Shown piece by piece: positions 10,288 to 62,900 of a stretch of 64,000 bases of DNA (the stretch's first letter is position 1; each line of letters starts with the position of its first letter). The DNA is from a virus. Both the position numbers and the translations under genes were made by a program. Location of the stretch: positions 1-64,000 of the IMG/VR virus record IMGVR_UViG_3300033149_001257, one strand, 5' to 3'. The notes under the pieces were generated by a model. That model was not told where the DNA came from. It saw only the letters and a list, made by a program, of their open reading frames with translations, and did not search any database.

Positions 10288-10316
10288 TTGACAAGGATTT
10301 ATGGTTATGCTATAAT
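10288..10316 (+). promoter_or_regulatory. sigma70-type promoter
   Basis: TTGACA-17 bp-TATAAT, with TG extension. Confidence 0.85.
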
Positions 10317-14951: not shown

Positions 14952-16106
14952 ATGACTGACAAGGCACTGACAATCGTAGGGAATGAGGTTGTAAACATTG
15001 GGGATGGGAAGATTAGGCTCAAGCGCACATCTAAAGGCGAGCTTATATCTGGAAGAGCTGAAATCACTCTTTATGAAGAAAAGAACGAGATGTATAAGAT
15101 AGGATATGGGAAATCGGAACAGTGGGCCCCTACCGCCAAGGGCTATAATAAGATGAATCAGATTTCGGGAGTAAGCGATATTAGGGTGGATAGCCAGATG
15201 ATTAATGGAGTGCTCCAGGGTAATCCATACGCAGAGAAAGAGAATGGGGTTATAGTACGTTGGCATGTTACGGTTATGCTCTTTGGCTATACCCCGCTGG
15301 GAGCTGCTCAGATAGTCAGTAATAGCCTCTGCCTTGATTTGGGGTTATATTGGATAGAAAGCCTTTCCGGTAAGATTAAGGACGTTCCTGCGGCTGGGAA
15401 GGTGGGTTCTAAGGATATGGCTAACCCTTATACTAATACTGCCAGATATTGCATAGACCCCATGGGGCAGATATTCTTATTTATTAATATAGACCATCCT
15501 GATATAGTTTATCTGCGAAAACAGAATTTACAACGCCAGAAAACCGGGGATAGAATGGCGCTTACTATATGTAGAAACAATGCTTTAAAGCGTTCGGCAT
15601 CTATGACCGTGGATAAGCTGGTACCCATAAGGATTGAGGGTTCAAACTTTTACAAAGCCATTGTGCGGCCATGGTATTTCAAGAATGTTAATACCGTACA
15701 AGAAATGCAGCAGATGTGTGGTAAGGTTATGGGTGGGAATCCGGATCCAGACGTTGATACGGTTATCATAGAAACCGAGGCTAAGGATGTGAGTTTTGAG
15801 GATATTGAGGCCGCCGAGGCTACTGTTGCAGAGCCGGGGGATAAGCAAGAAACTCCACCATCAAATGCTTCGGCAAAGAAAGCCGCGCCGGTAAAAGAAA
15901 AAGAAGAAAAGAAGGCTCCTAGAAAAGAAGAAAAGGTTTCCGGTGACATGAAAGAAAAAATGAAAGCATTGGCTGAGATAGCATCGGAACGCGCTGAATT
16001 AAAGAAAAATCTAAGGAATTGTAAGAATGAGCACCAAAAAGAAAACATAGAATCCAAGTTGGCGGAACTTGATGTTGAGGAGGTTGCGGTCAATGAACTG
16101 TCCTAA
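14952..16106 (+). CDS. hypothetical protein, possible recombination/single-strand annealing protein
   Basis: 384 aa; globular N-terminus and a disordered, charged C-terminus; SSAP-like architecture and context only. Confidence 0.45.
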   Translation: MTDKALTIVGNEVVNIGDGKIRLKRTSKGELISGRAEITLYEEKNEMYKIGYGKSEQWAPTAKGYNKMNQISGVSDIRVDSQMINGVLQGNPYAEKENGVIVRWHVTVMLFGYTPLGAAQIVSNSLCLDLGLYWIESLSGKIKDVPAAGKVGSKDMANPYTNTARYCIDPMGQIFLFINIDHPDIVYLRKQNLQRQKTGDRMALTICRNNALKRSASMTVDKLVPIRIEGSNFYKAIVRPWYFKNVNTVQEMQQMCGKVMGGNPDPDVDTVIIETEAKDVSFEDIEAAEATVAEPGDKQETPPSNASAKKAAPVKEKEEKKAPRKEEKVSGDMKEKMKALAEIASERAELKKNLRNCKNEHQKENIESKLAELDVEEVAVNELS

Positions 16107-16224
16107 ATGTGGGAATGCGAGATTTTATCGCGGATTGAAGAATTGCGTTGTTTGTGGTAAATGTGGTGCGGTACTAAGCCACGGGTGGGTGAGCATAGAA
16201 ACCGGAAAGGAGTATCATGGTTAA
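16093..16224 (+). CDS. zinc-ribbon microprotein (43 aa, not in track)
   Basis: CPKC...CGKC; GGAGG RBS. Confidence 0.5.
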   Translation: MNCPKCGNARFYRGLKNCVVCGKCGAVLSHGWVSIETGKEYHG

Positions 16225-16400
16225 AGAAATTTTAAAATTAAGTGCAAGGTATATTTTCGGCGTTGGGTTGGTTTTTGCTATTGCGGCCATGTTGGAAGCT
16301 CCCAGCATGAAAGAGGCTCATACGTGTGAATTTTTTAGAGAATTTGGCGCATGTATGATAATGATCGGTTCTTTTGGTTGGTGGGGAAAGGAGTAAAATC

Positions 16401-16649
16401 ATGGTTAAATGTAAGATTTTTTCACAGGAACACTTGAAGAGTGAAAACAAAAGGGAGTATGGTAGCGATGAGGGTTTTATATACGATTCAAGACAAGAGC
16501 TTGAGGATAGAATAAATAAGTGGATTGAGGGAAGTAAATTTGAAATTAAAATAATATCATCCACCCAAAGTTTAAATGAACTTCCTGGCCCACTCGGTGA
16601 TACTATCGGTGGTGGCATAAGTATTACTATATTCTACGAGGAGCTTTGA
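16401..16649 (+). CDS. hypothetical protein, C-terminus truncated by the IS insertion
   Basis: AAGGAG RBS; the stop is supplied by the IS right end; the frame rejoins 17834-17879 if the IS is removed. Confidence 0.65.
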   Translation: MVKCKIFSQEHLKSENKREYGSDEGFIYDSRQELEDRINKWIEGSKFEIKIISSTQSLNELPGPLGDTIGGGISITIFYEEL

Positions 16650-16780
16650 CACTACCCATAAAGGATATTCTCAGGTTGAGGATACAGAAGCCTGAAGGCT
16701 CTGCCCGAGCCTTAAAATGTTTAATGCAGCATTATAATCACGGTCAATTTCAAGACCACAGGAGCAACGATGAACGCGAA
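16646..16780 (-). ncRNA. putative TnpB omega-RNA (reRNA) scaffold; 5-prime limit approximate
   Basis: Overlaps the tnpB 3-prime end and right end; hairpins AGGCTC/GAGCCT, TCAGG/CCTGA and TATCC/GGGTA. Confidence 0.55.
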
Positions 16781-17771
16781 TAGACAAACCTTTTTTAACT
16801 ATTGCCCCGCAGCCCGAGCACCCATGGGATGTGTTTTTGGCAGGAACCTCAATGACTTCTTTTCCAGCTTCTTCCGCTTTGAAACGAAGTATATTGAAGA
16901 AATTAAACCATGCCACATCACCCATAGACCGATTCAGTTTTCTGAATGTTTTCCAGCTATGCAACTTTTCTATACAGATTATATCGTTTTCTTTCACAAG
17001 TTTATTAGCGACCTTGAAATGAAAATCTCGTCTTTGGTTGGTAATCTTTTCGTAAATCTTAGCGACAAGCAACTTCGCTTTCTTTCTTCTATTAGAACCT
17101 CTTTCTTTATGGCCCATAGACTGCTGACGTTTAGTAAGAATGTCTTGCGATTTATTAAGAAACCGAGGATTTTCAATTTTTCTATTATCAGAATCCGTAA
17201 GAAAAGATTCGCAGCCCACGTCAATACCGACAGTCTTGCCAGTTTTAGGCAATGGTTTATAGGGAACGTCGTCACAGACAAAAGAAACAAACCATTTGTC
17301 AGAAAGAGTTCTACGGATAGTTACGGTCTTGATTGCCCCCTCGATGGGACGAGAAAACTTTATCTTAAACTTACCAATTTTATTTATGGTAAGATATTTT
17401 CCATCAAGTTTCCACCCTGTTTTTTTAAGAGTAAAGGAATCGTATCTGCCCATTCCTTTAAATCTTGGAAACCCTGCCCTTTTTCCTCTTTTAACTCTAC
17501 GAAAAAAAGATTGATAGGATTTATCAAGGCGTTCAATTACATCTTGGAGTGTTTGCGAAGGAACTTTTTTAAATTCAGGGAATCCTTTTTTGAGGTCAGA
17601 AAGCTGATTTGCTTGGTCATACCCAGAAACATATTTCCCGTGGCATTTCCAGGCATTTATTCTCTGGTCAAGAGCAAGATTATAAAGTATTCTGCAAAGA
17701 TTAAGGACTTCTTCGGCACCGGAAAGAGTTTCACGGTTGGCATAGATTCTGTATTTAAAAGATTTTCTCAT
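16671..17771 (-). CDS. tnpB: RNA-guided endonuclease TnpB
   Basis: MRKSFKYRIY HTH start; RuvC D (GIDVG), E (IEKL), D (DRDYNAA); zinc finger CSGC...CSC. Confidence 0.95.
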   Translation of the reverse strand: MRKSFKYRIYANRETLSGAEEVLNLCRILYNLALDQRINAWKCHGKYVSGYDQANQLSDLKKGFPEFKKVPSQTLQDVIERLDKSYQSFFRRVKRGKRAGFPRFKGMGRYDSFTLKKTGWKLDGKYLTINKIGKFKIKFSRPIEGAIKTVTIRRTLSDKWFVSFVCDDVPYKPLPKTGKTVGIDVGCESFLTDSDNRKIENPRFLNKSQDILTKRQQSMGHKERGSNRRKKAKLLVAKIYEKITNQRRDFHFKVANKLVKENDIICIEKLHSWKTFRKLNRSMGDVAWFNFFNILRFKAEEAGKEVIEVPAKNTSHGCSGCGAIVKKGLSIRVHRCSCGLEIDRDYNAALNILRLGQSLQASVSST

Positions 17772-17789
17772 TACGTATCCTCAATGAGA

Positions 17790-17818
17790 ATTATATCATA
17801 TTTTAGATGTAATGTCAA
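17790..17818 (-). promoter_or_regulatory. consensus sigma70 promoter for tnpB
   Basis: TTGACA (17818-17813), 17 bp, TATAAT (17795-17790). Confidence 0.85.
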
Positions 17819-17883
17819 GAGATATTTGATTTTATCAAAAATGTTTTTAATCTCATCACTTGGAACATTAAAGGAGTAATAAA

Positions 17884-18282
17884 ATGGCTGACGAACTGTT
17901 GAAAATTGAGGAACATATTACTGATGGGTCGGTTGCTGATGTCCTGCAGATAGCGAGGTCTTTAATCGCAGGAGAAACCATGTCTATAGAGGTTATTGAA
18001 AAGACAATAAAGAAACTGGCTGGATACTCACTTTATATAGGAGCCACTGCTGGTCTGTATAAGGGGGAGAGGTCAAGAATTCAATACCTTACAATCAAGG
18101 ATGGTTCCGGTACTGCGAAGGATAAGGAAGCCCAGGGTAAATCAGCGGCCGCGGTAATGAGAACGCGCCAAGAAGTATTTGGGAATATGTTTAAGGCTCT
18201 CCTGAGTAGTACGGATGCAATGAGGGATATATTCAGGGAGCACAAAAAAGATTATCGTATGAATTATAATGCAGATGCTTAA
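17884..18282 (+). CDS. helical hypothetical protein
   Basis: 132 aa; AAGGAG RBS. Confidence 0.7.
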   Translation: MADELLKIEEHITDGSVADVLQIARSLIAGETMSIEVIEKTIKKLAGYSLYIGATAGLYKGERSRIQYLTIKDGSGTAKDKEAQGKSAAAVMRTRQEVFGNMFKALLSSTDAMRDIFREHKKDYRMNYNADA

Positions 18283-18288
18283 ATGAAT

Positions 18289-18370
18289 TGGGCGGTAGCG
18301 AAGATGACTGGTTTATTTGGTTCCGGACATTAGAGATATTTCGGGGTAGGATTCCCCGACCGCCCAACCA
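18289..18370 (+). tRNA. degenerate tRNA-like element (pseudo tRNA-Gln TTG-like)
   Basis: TGGGCGG(T)/(A)CCGCCCA acceptor stem, CGGGG-TAGGATT-CCCCG T-arm and an encoded ACCA end; D and anticodon arms non-canonical. Confidence 0.55.
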
Positions 18371-19686: not shown

Positions 19687-21513
19687 TTGAGAGTGAAAAT
19701 CACAAAAGTAAAGACGGGGGATTTCAAGGGTTATTCAAGGGAACTAAGTCTAAGCGGAACAGTAGTGTTGTGCGGTCCAAACGGGTCAGGAAAAACAGGT
19801 CTACAAAAAGCAATTGAAGTGGCAATCACGGGGTACGATAGCGACTTGGGTAAGAAACCAAAGTATACCATGCAGCATATATCTGGGAGTATGGGGTGGG
19901 TAGAAATTACCATTCAGTGTGATGATGGAGAAGTGGTTGTAATCAAGAGGACGTATACCCGAGATAAAAAAGGTAATGTTAAGATGGATGTCAGGGTACT
20001 ACCGAAGATGGATGAAAGCACGTCGGGTGATTATGAAGCACGGATTAAAAACATCGTCGGCTCGTTTCCCATAATGTTTGACCTCGCATCGTTCTTACAT
20101 ATGAAGGATTCTGAATACCGAGATTTCTTTTTCTCAAAATGTAAGGTTGATAATTGGGATAAAGAAAAGATATTTGATAAGATGATAAAAGGCACGGCCG
20201 GGTTGCTTGATGAGGATAAGTTGCAGTCCGATACCATCACCGTTCAGCTGGGAGAGGCGTGGCACGATGAGTTGTCCATTAAAGACAATCTTGAAACCGT
20301 AATAGAAACTCTCGGTAATATTAAAAATAGGGCACAGGGTGAGGTCAGGGGTAATGTCGGAGCTTCGGAGGCTGTTGAGGAAAGAAAGGTTGAGGATAAG
20401 ACATCAAAGACTATCCCTATGCTGAAAGAAGAAATAGCCAAGTACGAAGAAGATGCCCGGAAAGTGTCGGCAGATATAAAAATAAACAAAGACAATGCCG
20501 AGAAATACGACAAGAAAGAAGCCGAGATAAGCAAGGTTATCGTTGAAATTGCCGACATAAAGAAAGGGGATTTTGATGCCACTCTCACCGCGGAGGATTA
20601 TGCTAAAAAGATTAGCGAGTTAGATGCGATGTCGCCGCTCCCCAAGAATTTATACGAAATAGATGTTAAGATGGGGGTTGCTTCGGGGAAATGTCCAATA
20701 GGTGTCGAGTGTGATAAACTTGATGAGTATAAAAAGAGTATCCCTAATCTTAAAAAAGAGCGCGAGGAAATAAAAGAAAAGATGGATAAGAAAGACGAGC
20801 AGAAGTCTGTCTATGTACAGCAACAATGTCACGTGGGAGAATATAAACATCTGGTTGAGAATCTTGATAGACTACAGAAAGAAATGATGGATATGCCGAA
20901 ACCTGTTTCTAGTGAAGAACTTGAAACTCAGTTACAATCCCTGGATACAAAAAAGTCTGAGCTTGAATCAGAAAAGAATGTTAAGATACAGGTGCAAGCG
21001 GCCGAAAAAATGCAGGGTGATATAAAAAGTGCGCGCCTGGTCAACGAGGCGAAACTAAACGCCGTCAAGGTTTTGATTGGAGTTGTTGGTAAGGACGGTA
21101 TTCTCGGTGAGATAATAAAGTCTATTCTTGGACCATTTGCTGATAAGATTAATGGGTTGCTGCAGAAGATAGATGATGTCAAGAACTTTAAGTTTAATTT
21201 GGAAGATGAGATTACCGGTAAGCCCATATTCCAATTCGGATGGAAAAAAGATTCGGGATTCGTGCCATTCCATGCGTTATCTAATGGAGAGCGGGCACTG
21301 TTCGGTGCAGCCATAATGGTGGCCCTGATTACACAGCAGAATCCAAAGCTCCGAGTGTTGCTCATAGACAACATTGAAGCGGTTGATGATTCCCATAGGG
21401 ACGAATTCGTTAATGCCTGTTTTGAGTTTGAGAAAGTGGGGCAGATAGATAATGTGTTACTGGCGGGCTGTATGCAGTACGAGGGTGGGGTTCAGTTGGG
21501 CATGGATAAATAA
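19687..21513 (+). CDS. Rad50/SbcC/SMC-family ATPase
   Basis: Walker A GPNGSGKT, coiled coils with a central CPIGVEC, signature LSNGE, Walker B VLLIDNIE. Confidence 0.88.
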   Translation: MRVKITKVKTGDFKGYSRELSLSGTVVLCGPNGSGKTGLQKAIEVAITGYDSDLGKKPKYTMQHISGSMGWVEITIQCDDGEVVVIKRTYTRDKKGNVKMDVRVLPKMDESTSGDYEARIKNIVGSFPIMFDLASFLHMKDSEYRDFFFSKCKVDNWDKEKIFDKMIKGTAGLLDEDKLQSDTITVQLGEAWHDELSIKDNLETVIETLGNIKNRAQGEVRGNVGASEAVEERKVEDKTSKTIPMLKEEIAKYEEDARKVSADIKINKDNAEKYDKKEAEISKVIVEIADIKKGDFDATLTAEDYAKKISELDAMSPLPKNLYEIDVKMGVASGKCPIGVECDKLDEYKKSIPNLKKEREEIKEKMDKKDEQKSVYVQQQCHVGEYKHLVENLDRLQKEMMDMPKPVSSEELETQLQSLDTKKSELESEKNVKIQVQAAEKMQGDIKSARLVNEAKLNAVKVLIGVVGKDGILGEIIKSILGPFADKINGLLQKIDDVKNFKFNLEDEITGKPIFQFGWKKDSGFVPFHALSNGERALFGAAIMVALITQQNPKLRVLLIDNIEAVDDSHRDEFVNACFEFEKVGQIDNVLLAGCMQYEGGVQLGMDK

Positions 21514-27930: not shown

Positions 27931-27959
27931 TTGACAAGTAATCAGGTATATGGTATAGT
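27931..27959 (+). promoter_or_regulatory. sigma70-type promoter
   Basis: TTGACA-17-TATAGT with TG extension; similar to the 34771 promoter. Confidence 0.75.
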
Positions 27960-34770: not shown

Positions 34771-34807
34771 TTGACAAGTAGTAAACTATATGGTATATTA
34801 GTTTACG
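34771..34807 (+). promoter_or_regulatory. sigma70 promoter overlapped by an inverted repeat (possible recombinase site or operator)
   Basis: TTGACA-17-TATATT; GTAAACTA-N10-TAGTTTAC. Confidence 0.7.
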
Positions 34808-43705: not shown

Positions 43706-44437
43706 TTAAGCTCCTTTTCCAGTAGAATCTGTTCCCCTTGGGAAACATGACGACGGGTGGCAGTGTACACCATGCGCGCCAATGTGGTCCACTAAACTGG
43801 GATTTTTCATATAAACCAGCGCGTGCTCAAATCCTCTTTTAAATAATCTTGTACGGTACGAACCGTCGTCGATATGTGGCGATGTCCATATCTTGGGAAA
43901 GTTCTTCGTGGGCTCCAATTCATCCCACCCACCGGCTTCCAACACATCCATGGACATTATCCAACCCAGTCCACCTATCCAGTTACTCCATGCGTACTTC
44001 TTGCCCTCAAACTCATACTTTGTACCAGTATGGACTTTCTCTCCACGATTAAAACCTGTCATTATAGATATGGGGCGCTTGCCGGTCCAGTTCTTTTTAA
44101 GTGTTTCGTAGGCCGAAATCATTTCGCCGAGCCAGCCCTTTACTACGGTACAGTCATTATCAAGCATTACTGCATATTTACATCCGGATTTGTAGGCATG
44201 ATACCTCTTTAGCGCAAATGAATGCTGCCGGCCGGTACGAGTTTTCTTGAGTATCAACTTAATTTTACCCTTACTCTCAAGGTCCTGTAAGTATGGAATG
44301 GTGCCATCCGTAGACATGTCATCCACTACGACAATTTTATACCCTACTACAGTATTGTCAAATATTGAATTCAGGGTACGCTTCGTATAATTTAGTCTGT
44401 TGTAAGTATGCACGCATATTACATTGTCATTTTTCAT
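43706..44437 (-). CDS. GT2 glycosyltransferase
   Basis: HTYNR, VVDDMSTDGT, LDND, GGWDE. Confidence 0.9.
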   Translation of the reverse strand: MKNDNVICVHTYNRLNYTKRTLNSIFDNTVVGYKIVVVDDMSTDGTIPYLQDLESKGKIKLILKKTRTGRQHSFALKRYHAYKSGCKYAVMLDNDCTVVKGWLGEMISAYETLKKNWTGKRPISIMTGFNRGEKVHTGTKYEFEGKKYAWSNWIGGLGWIMSMDVLEAGGWDELEPTKNFPKIWTSPHIDDGSYRTRLFKRGFEHALVYMKNPSLVDHIGAHGVHCHPSSCFPRGTDSTGKGA

Positions 44438-59962: not shown

Positions 59963-62900
59963 TATCCTGGATACCTCGCTAACATAAATGTTGGCTGACT
60001 TTTCTTCGCAGACATTTTCTCAAGAAAATAGTTCTGGTTAATATTGTTTACTGTATCAATTACTCTTAGCGTCATGCCCATTATTATATGCGGCGCAAGC
60101 ATAGACGTTATTCTCACCTTACTCTTGTTTTTCTGGAACTCATAGAGCATTAATTTACCACGCCTGTCAATTATCGGTTGAGTAGATAATTCTATATGTA
60201 CGTCCCTGTCCTTATAAACCTTATCTCCATATATGGGTAATAGTCCGGCATCGTCAAATAAAGAACTGGCTGTTTCAAGCTCCTGCGATACCCTGACATC
60301 TATGGCATGATTATTGTCGGCGGTGTCGGTAGTACTTACAAACGTAGTGGGAGTTTTGCTCGTATACACAAACGCCTCAGCACCATCAATATATATCGTT
60401 CCGGTATCAGAAAATGCCGAGGTATCATCTACATTTATCGTTGAATCGCCTGCTGTTACTCCCACCGAAACCTGCGTTGTCGGTATCAGTGTAGCATCGG
60501 TTTCGAGTACCGTGTTGCCATATATCGCAAGCTCTGCCAGGCAAACAGCATAGAATGTTTCTCCTGCATGTTCAATCGCTCCCAACTCTTCAAGAATTAT
60601 CTTTACATATCTCGCTTGAAAAAACTCGCCTAAAATATCTTCTTCAAATGATACTTTCTCCCCACCCTTCATAATAAAATCTCTCGCATCCGAAGATATG
60701 GAACTGTAGCTCGTGCCATCTATGGAATATTCCAAACTGTATCTATTCTCTATGTCAAGCTTGTTTTTAATATCATTGGTATACGGATAATAAAAACCTT
60801 GAAGTAAATCAATGGCTCTTATATCCCGAAGTGAGCCCAGGTCTATAATTAAAAACTGTGTACCCGATAATGTCTTGTTCTTAAACTTTACCTGTAATTG
60901 TGTGTTGCTTAATCCATCTATCATTAGTGGCGCGCTTGTTGAGGGCTTAATTATATTGTTTGATGCGTAAGATAAATCCATTGACACTAATCCATTTCTG
61001 GTATTCTCAAATATACGAACTTCTTTATAATAAGCGTTTCCTGTATACCAATAAACACTAAGACCTACAGGGTGCCTATTGATTGCTTTTATTCTTGACA
61101 ATATCCTTATTTTTTTTATATATTTAGGAGCACCACTTTCATTAGGATACCATGTGGTGGTATACAAATCTGTTTCCCCTGCGGGAAATTCTATGTGGGA
61201 TGCTACCCAGTGGGTACCTGTCCACCAACTGCCCATATAATTCCACGTATCGTCAACGTCTTGATACATAACCGCATAATCTCCCCCATATAATCTTATG
61301 TCATCATTCATAATGGCACCCACGTCTAATTCAACTTTTGAAATATACCGTGTTCCGCCTAAGTCAAAGTTAATATTCTTTGAATATAGCACATCTTTTA
61401 CTCTTAATCTTTCCGAAGCATATACTCCTATGTGGGTGAAATATGTACTGGTATTCCCATCTATCATGTGGCCGGTAATTCCGGATGACCTACCACCTGG
61501 GGCTCCTATTGTTATGGTGGTATCCTCTGCTATGTTCGGAGTGGTAAACGCAGCATCTGGATCGCTTGGGAAATGAGTCGAATCTTTTTCTATCCTTACC
61601 GTGGCATTCGCACAATCTATAAGCACGTCATCTGCACTTATTGATTTATAAAAATCGGCATATGATGTTTGATTTAGTTTTGTATAATTCGTAGAAGAAG
61701 GCGCATACCAGATACCATTAGAATAATCCACGTTAGCGTTACCGGCAGCTATTGTGAAAAGACGTTCTCCGTCTGTTGTGTATATAATAATAGGATACTC
61801 TCTGGATATTTTATATCCAAACCTTACCTCATAATGAGATTGCGATAAATATGATGGTATTTCCGATGGGTCGGAATTAGAAAAATCATCCACGCTTGTC
61901 ACTCCCGGAGCAAATAATGTTAGAGCTCCATTTCCCGTGGGTGAAATCACTTGAGATTGAAATTGTACATCATTGTCGGATATTGGTACACCATTAAATC
62001 TCACGTTTGGTATTGTAGGATAAGATAGTATTGCGGGTGAAAAATAAACCCCATTGGCATCCGCAAGATAAAGTTTATAGTTGGCGTATGTTATATCATC
62101 GCCTGTCCATTGGAGTGGCTGATTCTCTGCCGTGGCGCTATATGTTCCTATGTCAACAAAAGATACCACTCTGTTTCCATCCTCATCAACCGCCTGCATA
62201 TAATTTGTGGGATTCTCGTTCTGTCCATACATTTTTACCCTTGTGTATATCTCCCCATCTGATATATAGTCCAAGGAAATCTGTCCCGGTACGGTATAAT
62301 CAGCATTTACTTTCTGGGTAAGATAAGACCCCCAGACCTTCTGCGAACCAGCCGTACGAAAAATATAATTAGGCGCAAGCAGACTCCTGATTTCATTTAT
62401 AGCATCAAACCGGTTATTAATCTTACTCGCAGAAAACTCTATCACCGGTATTTGTATTCCGGTGGCCTGTATGGTGCAAAATGTGTAATCCACATCACAG
62501 GTTACGGTAGCCCCTGTGCCCCCCGTGGGGGGAGTGGTCAATATAATCTTACCATACCTTTTATCAAACCTGTTAAACTGCGCCGCAAGTATACCCGGGA
62601 TAGTAAAATTGCCATGCACAAGGTCGGTACTCACGTTGTTATAAGTTAAATACCATACCTGCCCAACTGGATATGCTTGATATACGGTAGCTTTATCATT
62701 ATGGGCCGCCGCAATAGAAGATAATTCTCCACGTGTACATCCAGTAAGCGTGGTGGCTGTTTTCCCGGTATATTCAATAAACTCATTATCTATTTTAATA
62801 TACCCCGTATCGTCAAAATCAGCAGTATCTTCCTTCGTGGTTATGGTGTCAATAGCATCCGTCACTGAACCCTTGAGATGTACTTTCACGTCAATTGTTT

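Follow-up and report, generated by a model that had tools for sequence, protein, structure and literature searches.

To our knowledge, little has been described of how the expression of TnpB, the ancestor of Cas12 and a compact genome editor, is naturally restrained, apart from Arc repressors, which were reported recently. In IS10/IS50 and IS200, translation of the transposase is under antisense or fold-back control (RNA-OUT/RNA-IN in the former; art200 and a Shine-Dalgarno (SD)-sequestering 5′ hairpin of tnpA in the latter), and in IS10/IS50 a hairpin with its 5′ arm upstream of the native start specifically silences read-through transcripts. Here we analyse a tnpB locus on the minus strand of a stretch of viral DNA, hereafter the window, that comprises the first 64 kb of the 110-kb IMG/VR record IMGVR_UViG_3300033149_001257 (the full record being labelled G000), with particular attention to an RNA pairing that may control the translation of this gene. 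TnpB processes its own mRNA, and TnpB mRNA inhibits DNA cleavage (2023, PMC10278001); Arc repressors act at IS605-family promoters (2026 preprint, 10.64898/2026.09.24.754181), and sense-overlapping RNAs and tnpB are differentially regulated in haloarchaea (PMC4615843). In Bacillus subtilis, anti-SD-like 8-mers several hundred nucleotides downstream pair with the ribosome-binding site (RBS), repress translation and promote decay, and such 8-mers are depleted from genes (Gill et al. 2025 preprint, PMC12697547).

The window TnpB is of the same family as that studied in PMC10278001, shares its catalytic motifs and likewise has a guide RNA (omega-RNA) scaffold overlapping the 3′ end of the gene, in which a subterminal hairpin lies no more than 10 nt from the scaffold end and is followed by the guide; in both systems mRNA and guide RNA are one transcript, with coupled fates. 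At the window locus, a loop within the scaffold is exactly complementary to the tnpB RBS, and may thereby act as an anti-RBS element. Full-text literature searches returned no prior description of pairing between an omega-RNA and a tnpB RBS, in keeping with the statement in an earlier reading of this sequence (hereafter the original prediction) that such a mechanism was not known to it.

An exact complement links the tnpB leader to the omega-RNA

The central claim of the original prediction was an exact complement between the tnpB leader and the 3′ end of the element, and every sequence and position that it gave was recovered. The leader 10-mer TTGAGGATAC (17784-17775, minus strand) contains the SD sequence GAGGA, 6 nt ahead of the ATG, and is complementary at every position to GTATCCTCAA (16685-16676) on the same strand; an inverted-repeat search agrees, and these two copies of the 10-mer are the only ones in the window. 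The latter sequence lies, as had been proposed, in the loop of a TCAGG/CCTGA stem (16671-16695, minus strand; arms 16695-16691 and 16675-16671, with the TGA stop codon in the 3′ arm), where it forms the 3′ two-thirds of a 15-nt loop (16690-16676) that folding predicts to be mostly unpaired (probability unpaired 0.6-0.98). The complementarity spans the SD, i.e. 10 nt including GAGGA at the window locus (WIN in the comparisons below, in which L-numbers label the compared loci or contigs) and 11 nt up to the ATG in its closest relative, L005.

When the 27-nt stretch from the −10 element to the ATG was compared with the 145-nt omega region, exact complements of at least 10 nt arose in 60 of 20000 dinucleotide shuffles (~0.3%). 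A longer match of 17 nt with a 2-nt bulge, also part of the original prediction, was borne out as sequence (17/19 matched) and was reached by 0-1 of 3000 shuffles (p <0.001), although its 7-nt extension probably lies outside the native transcript (see below). A chance origin of the leader/loop match is on these grounds unlikely. The predicted ensemble binding of the omega-RNA to the native leader is −7.0 kcal/mol, compared with −5.4 ± 0.65 kcal/mol for loop-shuffled controls. The sequence TTGAGGAT is five-fold over-represented in the genome (18 copies versus 3.4 expected), mostly encoding Leu/Ile-Glu-Asp; a role for the loop as a general anti-RBS for phage genes was considered and rejected, as none of the 17 other TTGAGGAT sites is a ribosome-binding site.

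Architecture of the scaffold, promoter and leader

The omega-RNA scaffold (16646-16755, minus strand) was delimited by alignment with 14 relatives and RNAalifold, and is represented by two stand-alone copies elsewhere in the genome; the comparison comprised the window locus, the second genome copy, the two stand-alone scaffolds and a dozen relatives of 60-81% identity. Its first stem, AAGGCTC/GAGCCTT (AAGGCTC-GGGCA-GAGCCTT, 16713-16695), shows compensatory changes among relatives. The hairpin that carries the anti-RBS loop follows and differs in length and sequence between relatives, from a 6-nt loop in L004 to a stem-loop of ~28 nt in others, and because its size varies to this extent it is probably exposed and dispensable for scaffold function; its closing stem TCAGG/CCTGA is nevertheless preserved by wobble pairing in L005 and by a compensatory change in the second genome copy. 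Beyond it lie TGAGAAT (16673-16667), of which GAGAAT is conserved in the scaffold, and a shortened right-end hairpin, TATCC/GGGTA (16667-16653), equivalent to a terminal hairpin that relatives keep via compensatory changes. The terminal TGTCAA (16651-16646) marks the end of homology, and the guide position (16626-16645, minus strand) is occupied by flanking DNA: homology with L005, L003, L004 and the second copy stops right after TGTCAA/TGCCAA. A search of 16000-18300 against Rfam returned no omega-RNA family, the sole match being a chance, sub-threshold snoRNA.

At the 5′ end, a sigma-70 promoter, TTGACA-N17-TATAAT with TG before the −10 element (17818-17790, minus strand), matches the consensus hexamers at 12 of 12 positions, is one of two perfect consensus matches in the window and is also present in L005/L006. 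Normal promoter spacing places the predicted transcript start at ~17783-17781, i.e. within the first bases of the leader 10-mer, such that the native mRNA is predicted to open with (UU)GAGGAUACGUAAUG, its SD being right at the 5′ end and separated from the ATG by 6 nt. Since the consensus promoter positions the start here, and the 7-nt extension ATTCTCA overlaps the −10 element and discriminator, both ATTCTCA and the arm TTCTCATT described below are probably outside the native mRNA. The possibility that the extension is simply a common promoter discriminator of this phage was rejected, as its other consensus promoters lack TCTCA. There are ~15 near-consensus sigma-70 promoters across the phage genome, many of the form TTGACAAG...TATGGTATAnT; those in the window are at 10288-10316(+), 27931-27959(+), 34771-34799(+), 61095-61124(+) and 44334-44361(−), with more beyond it.

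The original prediction further described an 8-bp inverted repeat overlapping the ATG. The sequence is as described (TTCTCATT, 17790-17783, and AATGAGAA, 17772-17765; 17765-17790 overall, minus strand) and the repeat encloses both SD and ATG, but the hairpin probably lies in part outside the native transcript: the predicted folding energy of the leader is −9.4 kcal/mol when folded from 17789 and −2.3 kcal/mol when folded from the predicted start, where the hairpin is absent. As modelled, the hairpin would probably form only in read-through transcripts begun upstream, as a guard that silences these. The repeat is weaker in L005, with one wobble pair and one mismatch.

Close relatives and additional scaffold copies

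The closest protein among 5.8 billion is the TnpB of L005/L006 (81% amino acid identity), and besides it only the second copy in this genome exceeds 70% identity. When IMG/VR was scanned with leader and loop patterns, the L005/L006 contigs alone were recovered, the remaining matches being unrelated coding sequences. L005 has the same promoter, leader and loop as the window locus, in an unrelated genome context with which the tnpB unit is the sole shared segment. Homology between the two begins exactly at TTGACA and ends exactly at TGTCAA; synteny of neighbouring genes, which would have rendered these boundaries trivial, was examined and rejected, as only the tnpB unit is held in common. Complementarity in a close homologue, the absence of which was to count against the original prediction, is kept, though in a shifted register: L005/L006 pair AGGATACGGAA with TTCCGTATCCT over 11 nt reaching the A of the ATG. 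Within a common 14-bp duplex, which holds 10-11 contiguous pairs in each case, the window locus has pairs 1-10, a G-U pair, a mismatch and two further pairs, and L005 has two pairs, an A-C mismatch and 11 perfect pairs to the A of the ATG. These two sequences are compatible both with selection on the pairing in this lineage and with its absence.

Three further family members lie in the same genome, outside the window and on the minus strand. Of two stand-alone scaffolds that lack tnpB, L003 (G000 ~76431-76543) keeps the anti-leader loop and has an 11-nt perfect complement to the window leader, whilst in L004 (G000 ~72610-72700) the hairpin has shrunk to a 6-nt loop; the two begin at nearly the same position of the scaffold, and the terminal hairpin is shortened in each. 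The strongest predicted binding to the window leader is that of L003, at −11.8 kcal/mol, compared with −1.9 and −3.3 kcal/mol for two scaffolds that lack the loop. In L003 the terminal hairpin and TCAA are continuous with the AAGGAG and ATG of the following gene. The third member, L002 (G000 ~77400-79000), is a second element, 79% identical and of tnpA-tnpB type, in which tnpA encodes a Y1 transposase of 129 aa and its stop codon overlaps the tnpB ATG. The right-end hairpin of this element is complete, and a consensus-like promoter lies 8-9 nt ahead of the tnpA ATG; a left-end hairpin was not seen upstream of that promoter. A possible antisense mimic of the scaffold at G000 83990-84030(+) proved weak, matching 14 of 17 stem 1 positions in reverse complement, and was set aside.

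Among other relatives, L042, L046, L047, L044 and L052 carry a left-end hairpin, ATGAATTG and then a sigma-70 promoter whose −10 element lies 6-9 nt before the first ATG, and the tnpA mRNAs of these relatives (or the tnpB mRNAs of copies lacking tnpA) would by this spacing be nearly leaderless. The 18-nt leader with an SD is confined to the window locus and L005 among the family members compared. An alternative pairing, of the omega loop with the tnpA leader in tnpA-bearing relatives, was rejected because it extends to 5-6 nt only and these mRNAs are nearly leaderless. In L005, positions 1400-1450, ~30 nt upstream of the promoter, contain the left half of the family left-end hairpin (CCCCCGACTTTAG), which breaks off directly behind TTTAG; the left end is disrupted in L005 and wholly missing from the window copy.

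Start-region complements in other TnpB loci

We surveyed 145 TnpB loci with distinct start regions, comparing positions −16 to +3 (the start region) with positions −60 to +160 relative to the stop (the 3′ region). Inverted matches of at least 10 nt were found at 12 of 145 loci and direct matches of this length at none (0/145), whilst comparison of the start region with the ORF interior gave one inverted and two direct matches in 435. The 12 matches comprise eight members of a clade typified by L022, the window locus with L005, L029, and one A-rich case; three independent lineages with non-repetitive sequence therefore carry complements, where ~0.3 would be expected. Cognate start and 3′ regions matched in 5 of 49 comparisons, as against 0.7% of non-cognate ones. 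Complementarity between start region and omega-RNA is nevertheless sporadic and not a family trait.

The L022 clade consists of Firmicutes/phage TnpB elements (IMG/VR and genome contigs among L240-L267, L161 and L021-L031). Its SD-ATG spacer GCAACGA is conserved, and the leader GAGGTGCAACGA between SD and ATG complements TCGTTGCACCTY, which forms the loop and 3′ arm of the first post-stop hairpin. Over 11 distinct sequence pairs this duplex is 96% paired, falling to 35-58% when the partner is slid by 1-3 columns, and identity within the clade is 89% in the 6-nt SD-ATG spacer, 63% in the coding sequence and 40% upstream of the SD. Double-sided compensatory changes occur in L253 (C-G to T-A) and L254 (G-C to A-T), and two one-sided changes keep a wobble pair (L241/L247, L267), against which four changes weaken the duplex (L250, L256, L259, L261). 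These patterns provide fair evidence from sequence that start-region/omega pairing is under selection in this clade. As to the covariation for which the original prediction asked, the window lineage consists of two sequences with no double change, and the unrelated L022 clade has two double changes. By analogy, the clade would raise the prior for pairing at the window locus, and it constitutes a second, better-populated system for the same question.

The notion that the leader complements of L022 and L161 form part of longer inverted repeats was rejected, as none was found around the sites; the L022 complement measures 11-12 nt. At L029, a palindromic sequence of ~40 nt is present at ~1410-1450 and again at ~2890-2930, i.e. 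~60-90 nt upstream of tnpB and ~160-200 nt past its stop. The two copies probably represent the hairpins of the left and right ends, which would imply an omega-RNA of more than 200 nt.

The window TnpB and its surroundings

The tnpB gene (16671-17771, minus strand; ATG 17771-17769, TGA 16673-16671), identified from an open reading frame (ORF) list and Pfam, encodes 366 aa and matches PF01385 (OrfB_IS605, 4e-23), PF07282 (Cas12f1-like TNB, 4e-20) and PF12323 (HTH_OrfB_IS605, 9e-8). Residues 2-355 align with the ISDra2 TnpB structures 8bf8, 8ex9 and 8h1j (E 4e-47), and the window motifs GIDVG, IEKL and DRD align with ISDra2 GVDLG, VEDL and DRD, which we take to hold the RuvC D-E-D catalytic residues; as judged from this alignment of motifs, the nuclease looks catalytically intact. 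The locus thus combines OrfB_IS605 and zinc-ribbon TNB domains, D-E-D motifs and a 3′-overlapping omega-RNA scaffold. Features of a mobile IS200/IS605 element are lacking, in that no family left end (GCAAGAAT-hairpin-ATGAATTG) precedes tnpB, the right-end hairpin is reduced to 5 bp and no tnpA adjoins the gene; for these reasons the window copy looks immobile. The suggestion in the original prediction that loop-loop pairing of the two element ends might serve as a DNA or transposition feature is not sustained, on the same three grounds. A strong promoter is as expected of a domesticated or decaying element in a phage.

The flanking ORFs, 16238-16618(−) and 17884-18282(+), have no Pfam or PHROG match. 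A further ORF at 19687-21513(+), of 608 aa, matches the PHROG family for the SbcC-like subunit of a palindrome-specific endonuclease.

A putative anti-RBS mechanism

The explanation that we favour, at close to but slightly short of an even likelihood, is that the loop of the window scaffold engages in long-range anti-RBS pairing, in cis and/or in trans, that limits TnpB translation. On this model, drawn from sequence comparison, the tnpB transcript, whose 3′ end doubles as the guide RNA, would expose there a loop complementary to its own translation-initiation region. In the full-length mRNA the loop would pair in cis with the SD at the very start of the same molecule, whilst the processed omega-RNA, together with the stand-alone scaffold copy elsewhere in the phage, would pair with the SD in trans. 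Either event would block 30S binding, so that TnpB synthesis would drop as its RNA builds up, a negative feedback suited to a nuclease under a consensus promoter. Read-through transcripts alone would be silenced by the separate 8-bp leader hairpin.

Several observations weigh against this explanation. Only 8-10 nt of the complement fall inside the predicted native mRNA, and the duplex energy of the probably transcribed leader (−15.5 kcal/mol) is equalled by 123 of 3396 genome windows, placing it in the top 3.6%; moreover, the cognate omega-RNA is predicted to bind the leader just 1.5 kcal/mol better than its loop-shuffled controls. The window locus and L005 have one uncompensated mismatch each and no compensatory change, and with three differences over 28 paired positions they have diverged no less than expected under neutral drift. 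The tnpA-bearing relatives of the family lack a leader/omega complement, as do most of the TnpB loci examined, including L027 and L249, which are close relatives of L029. In the L022 clade, a column-shuffle control was borderline (271/5000) because the clade varies little. Finally, the complement of the window leader runs on into probably untranscribed DNA and its significance rises once this DNA is counted, which hints at an origin at the DNA level. The proposal of omega-RNA feedback on TnpB translation is upheld in part: the region is a TnpB gene with its scaffold and a predicted exposed loop, and recurrence and covariation in other TnpB clades lend plausible feedback indirect support, whereas at the window locus the one close relative is shifted in register with one uncompensated mismatch and the predicted binding is modest.

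A broader proposal, which we advance tentatively and consider rather less probable than not, is that some TnpB guide RNAs are translational repressors of their own nuclease through pairing of a scaffold loop with the SD-to-AUG region, that this has evolved independently in at least three TnpB lineages, and that a stand-alone scaffold copy acts in trans in this phage. On this proposal, one RNA would alternate between message and guide, and guide abundance would set nuclease dosage.

Alternative explanations

The most serious alternative, though somewhat unlikely in our assessment, is that the complementarity is the by-product of a DNA-level event, in which the promoter-leader arose as a degenerate inverted copy of the right end and was subsequently put to use as promoter and SD, the complementarity having at most a minor function in RNA. 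When 17818-17769 is reverse-complemented, it can be aligned along its whole length to the terminal 41-53 nt of the omega/right-end region, with GTATCCTCAA, TGAGAAT, a TTTAG-type loop and TGTCAA in a common order and with Smith-Waterman scores of 36 against the window right end and 40 against the fuller right end of L005, neither of which was reached in 3000 shuffles. The −35 element TTGACA is the reverse complement of the terminal TGTCAA, these same two sequences delimit the homology between the window locus and L005 in their unrelated genome contexts, and such an event would account for the extension of the match into probably untranscribed DNA. However, with TTGACA held fixed as −35 consensus, the promoter part resembles the right end weakly (p 0.008-0.16), and the leader part supplies most of the alignment score. 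L042, L047, L046, L044 and L052, which have no inverted right end, have their promoter in this position too, following the left-end hairpin, such that the promoter is probably ancestral, and a homology edge at the −35 element is also expected from selection on the promoter. The 11-12-nt complement of the L022 clade has no flanking inverted repeat, and complements can therefore arise without duplication. An origin of this kind would in any case be compatible with present function.

It is less likely still that an SD-containing leader simply happens to match a pyrimidine-rich loop, the match having been picked afterwards from a 64-kb window. The excess of TTGAGGAT in the genome (18 copies versus 3.4), exact matches of 10-13 nt to the omega region all over the 110-kb genome, the top-3.6% rank of the native leader duplex and the many comparisons open when the match was picked all lean this way; against this, p is ~0.003 in the position-specific test and <0.001 for the 17/19 match, the match persists in L005, and matches of the same kind recur in two other lineages whilst being nearly absent from same-locus controls. 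That the two sites are inverted copies of a double-stranded DNA site for one protein (a regulator, or a transposition or recombination factor), after the manner of terminal inverted repeats, is very improbable: a mobile unit, found in different genomes, does carry identical inverted sites at its two ends, and the parallel changes in L253 and L254 would also occur where one protein's sites co-evolve, but the IS200/IS605 TnpA acts on single-stranded hairpins in direct rather than inverted copies, as at the family ends, no tnpA, regulator gene or left-end hairpin accompanies the window copy, and the pairing-keeping wobble substitutions of L241 and L267 would break DNA site identity.

Comparison with described systems

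If the anti-RBS mechanism proposed here is correct, a guide RNA that shuts off translation of its nuclease would represent a new layer of autoregulation, by which transposons and phages would couple the dosage of the nuclease to the supply of guide; it would also account for the conservation of some scaffold hairpins and SD-ATG spacers, and would bear on expression constructs that retain native leaders. The feedback described in PMC10278001 differs in that mRNA inhibits cleavage, and pairing of the scaffold with its own RBS is not described there; the window copy in addition differs from that system in lacking a left-end hairpin, in its shortened right-end hairpin and in having a consensus promoter of its own. 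Control by Arc is similar to the extent that tnpB expression is held down despite a strong element-borne promoter, but is protein-mediated and transcriptional, and no arc gene adjoins the window tnpB.

The proposed mechanism would resemble that of IS10/IS50 and IS200 in that the element produces an RNA that binds or occludes the SD and start codon of its own gene, and the 5′ arm of the 8-bp leader hairpin is predicted to lie, much as in IS10/IS50, at or upstream of the native transcript start. Here, in contrast to these elements, the partner is no antisense transcript but a sense-strand loop 1.1 kb downstream, in the same transcript and inside the guide RNA. In this respect the window locus comes closest to the situation in B. 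subtilis, with a pyrimidine-rich 8-10-mer far downstream that is complementary to the RBS; because PMC12697547 demonstrates both repression by such 8-mers and their depletion, a cis mechanism is physically credible and retention of the complement is notable. Whereas such sequences are selected against in ordinary genes, however, here the complement is retained, in the L022 clade it is conserved and covarying, and it resides inside a structured RNA that outlives the mRNA.

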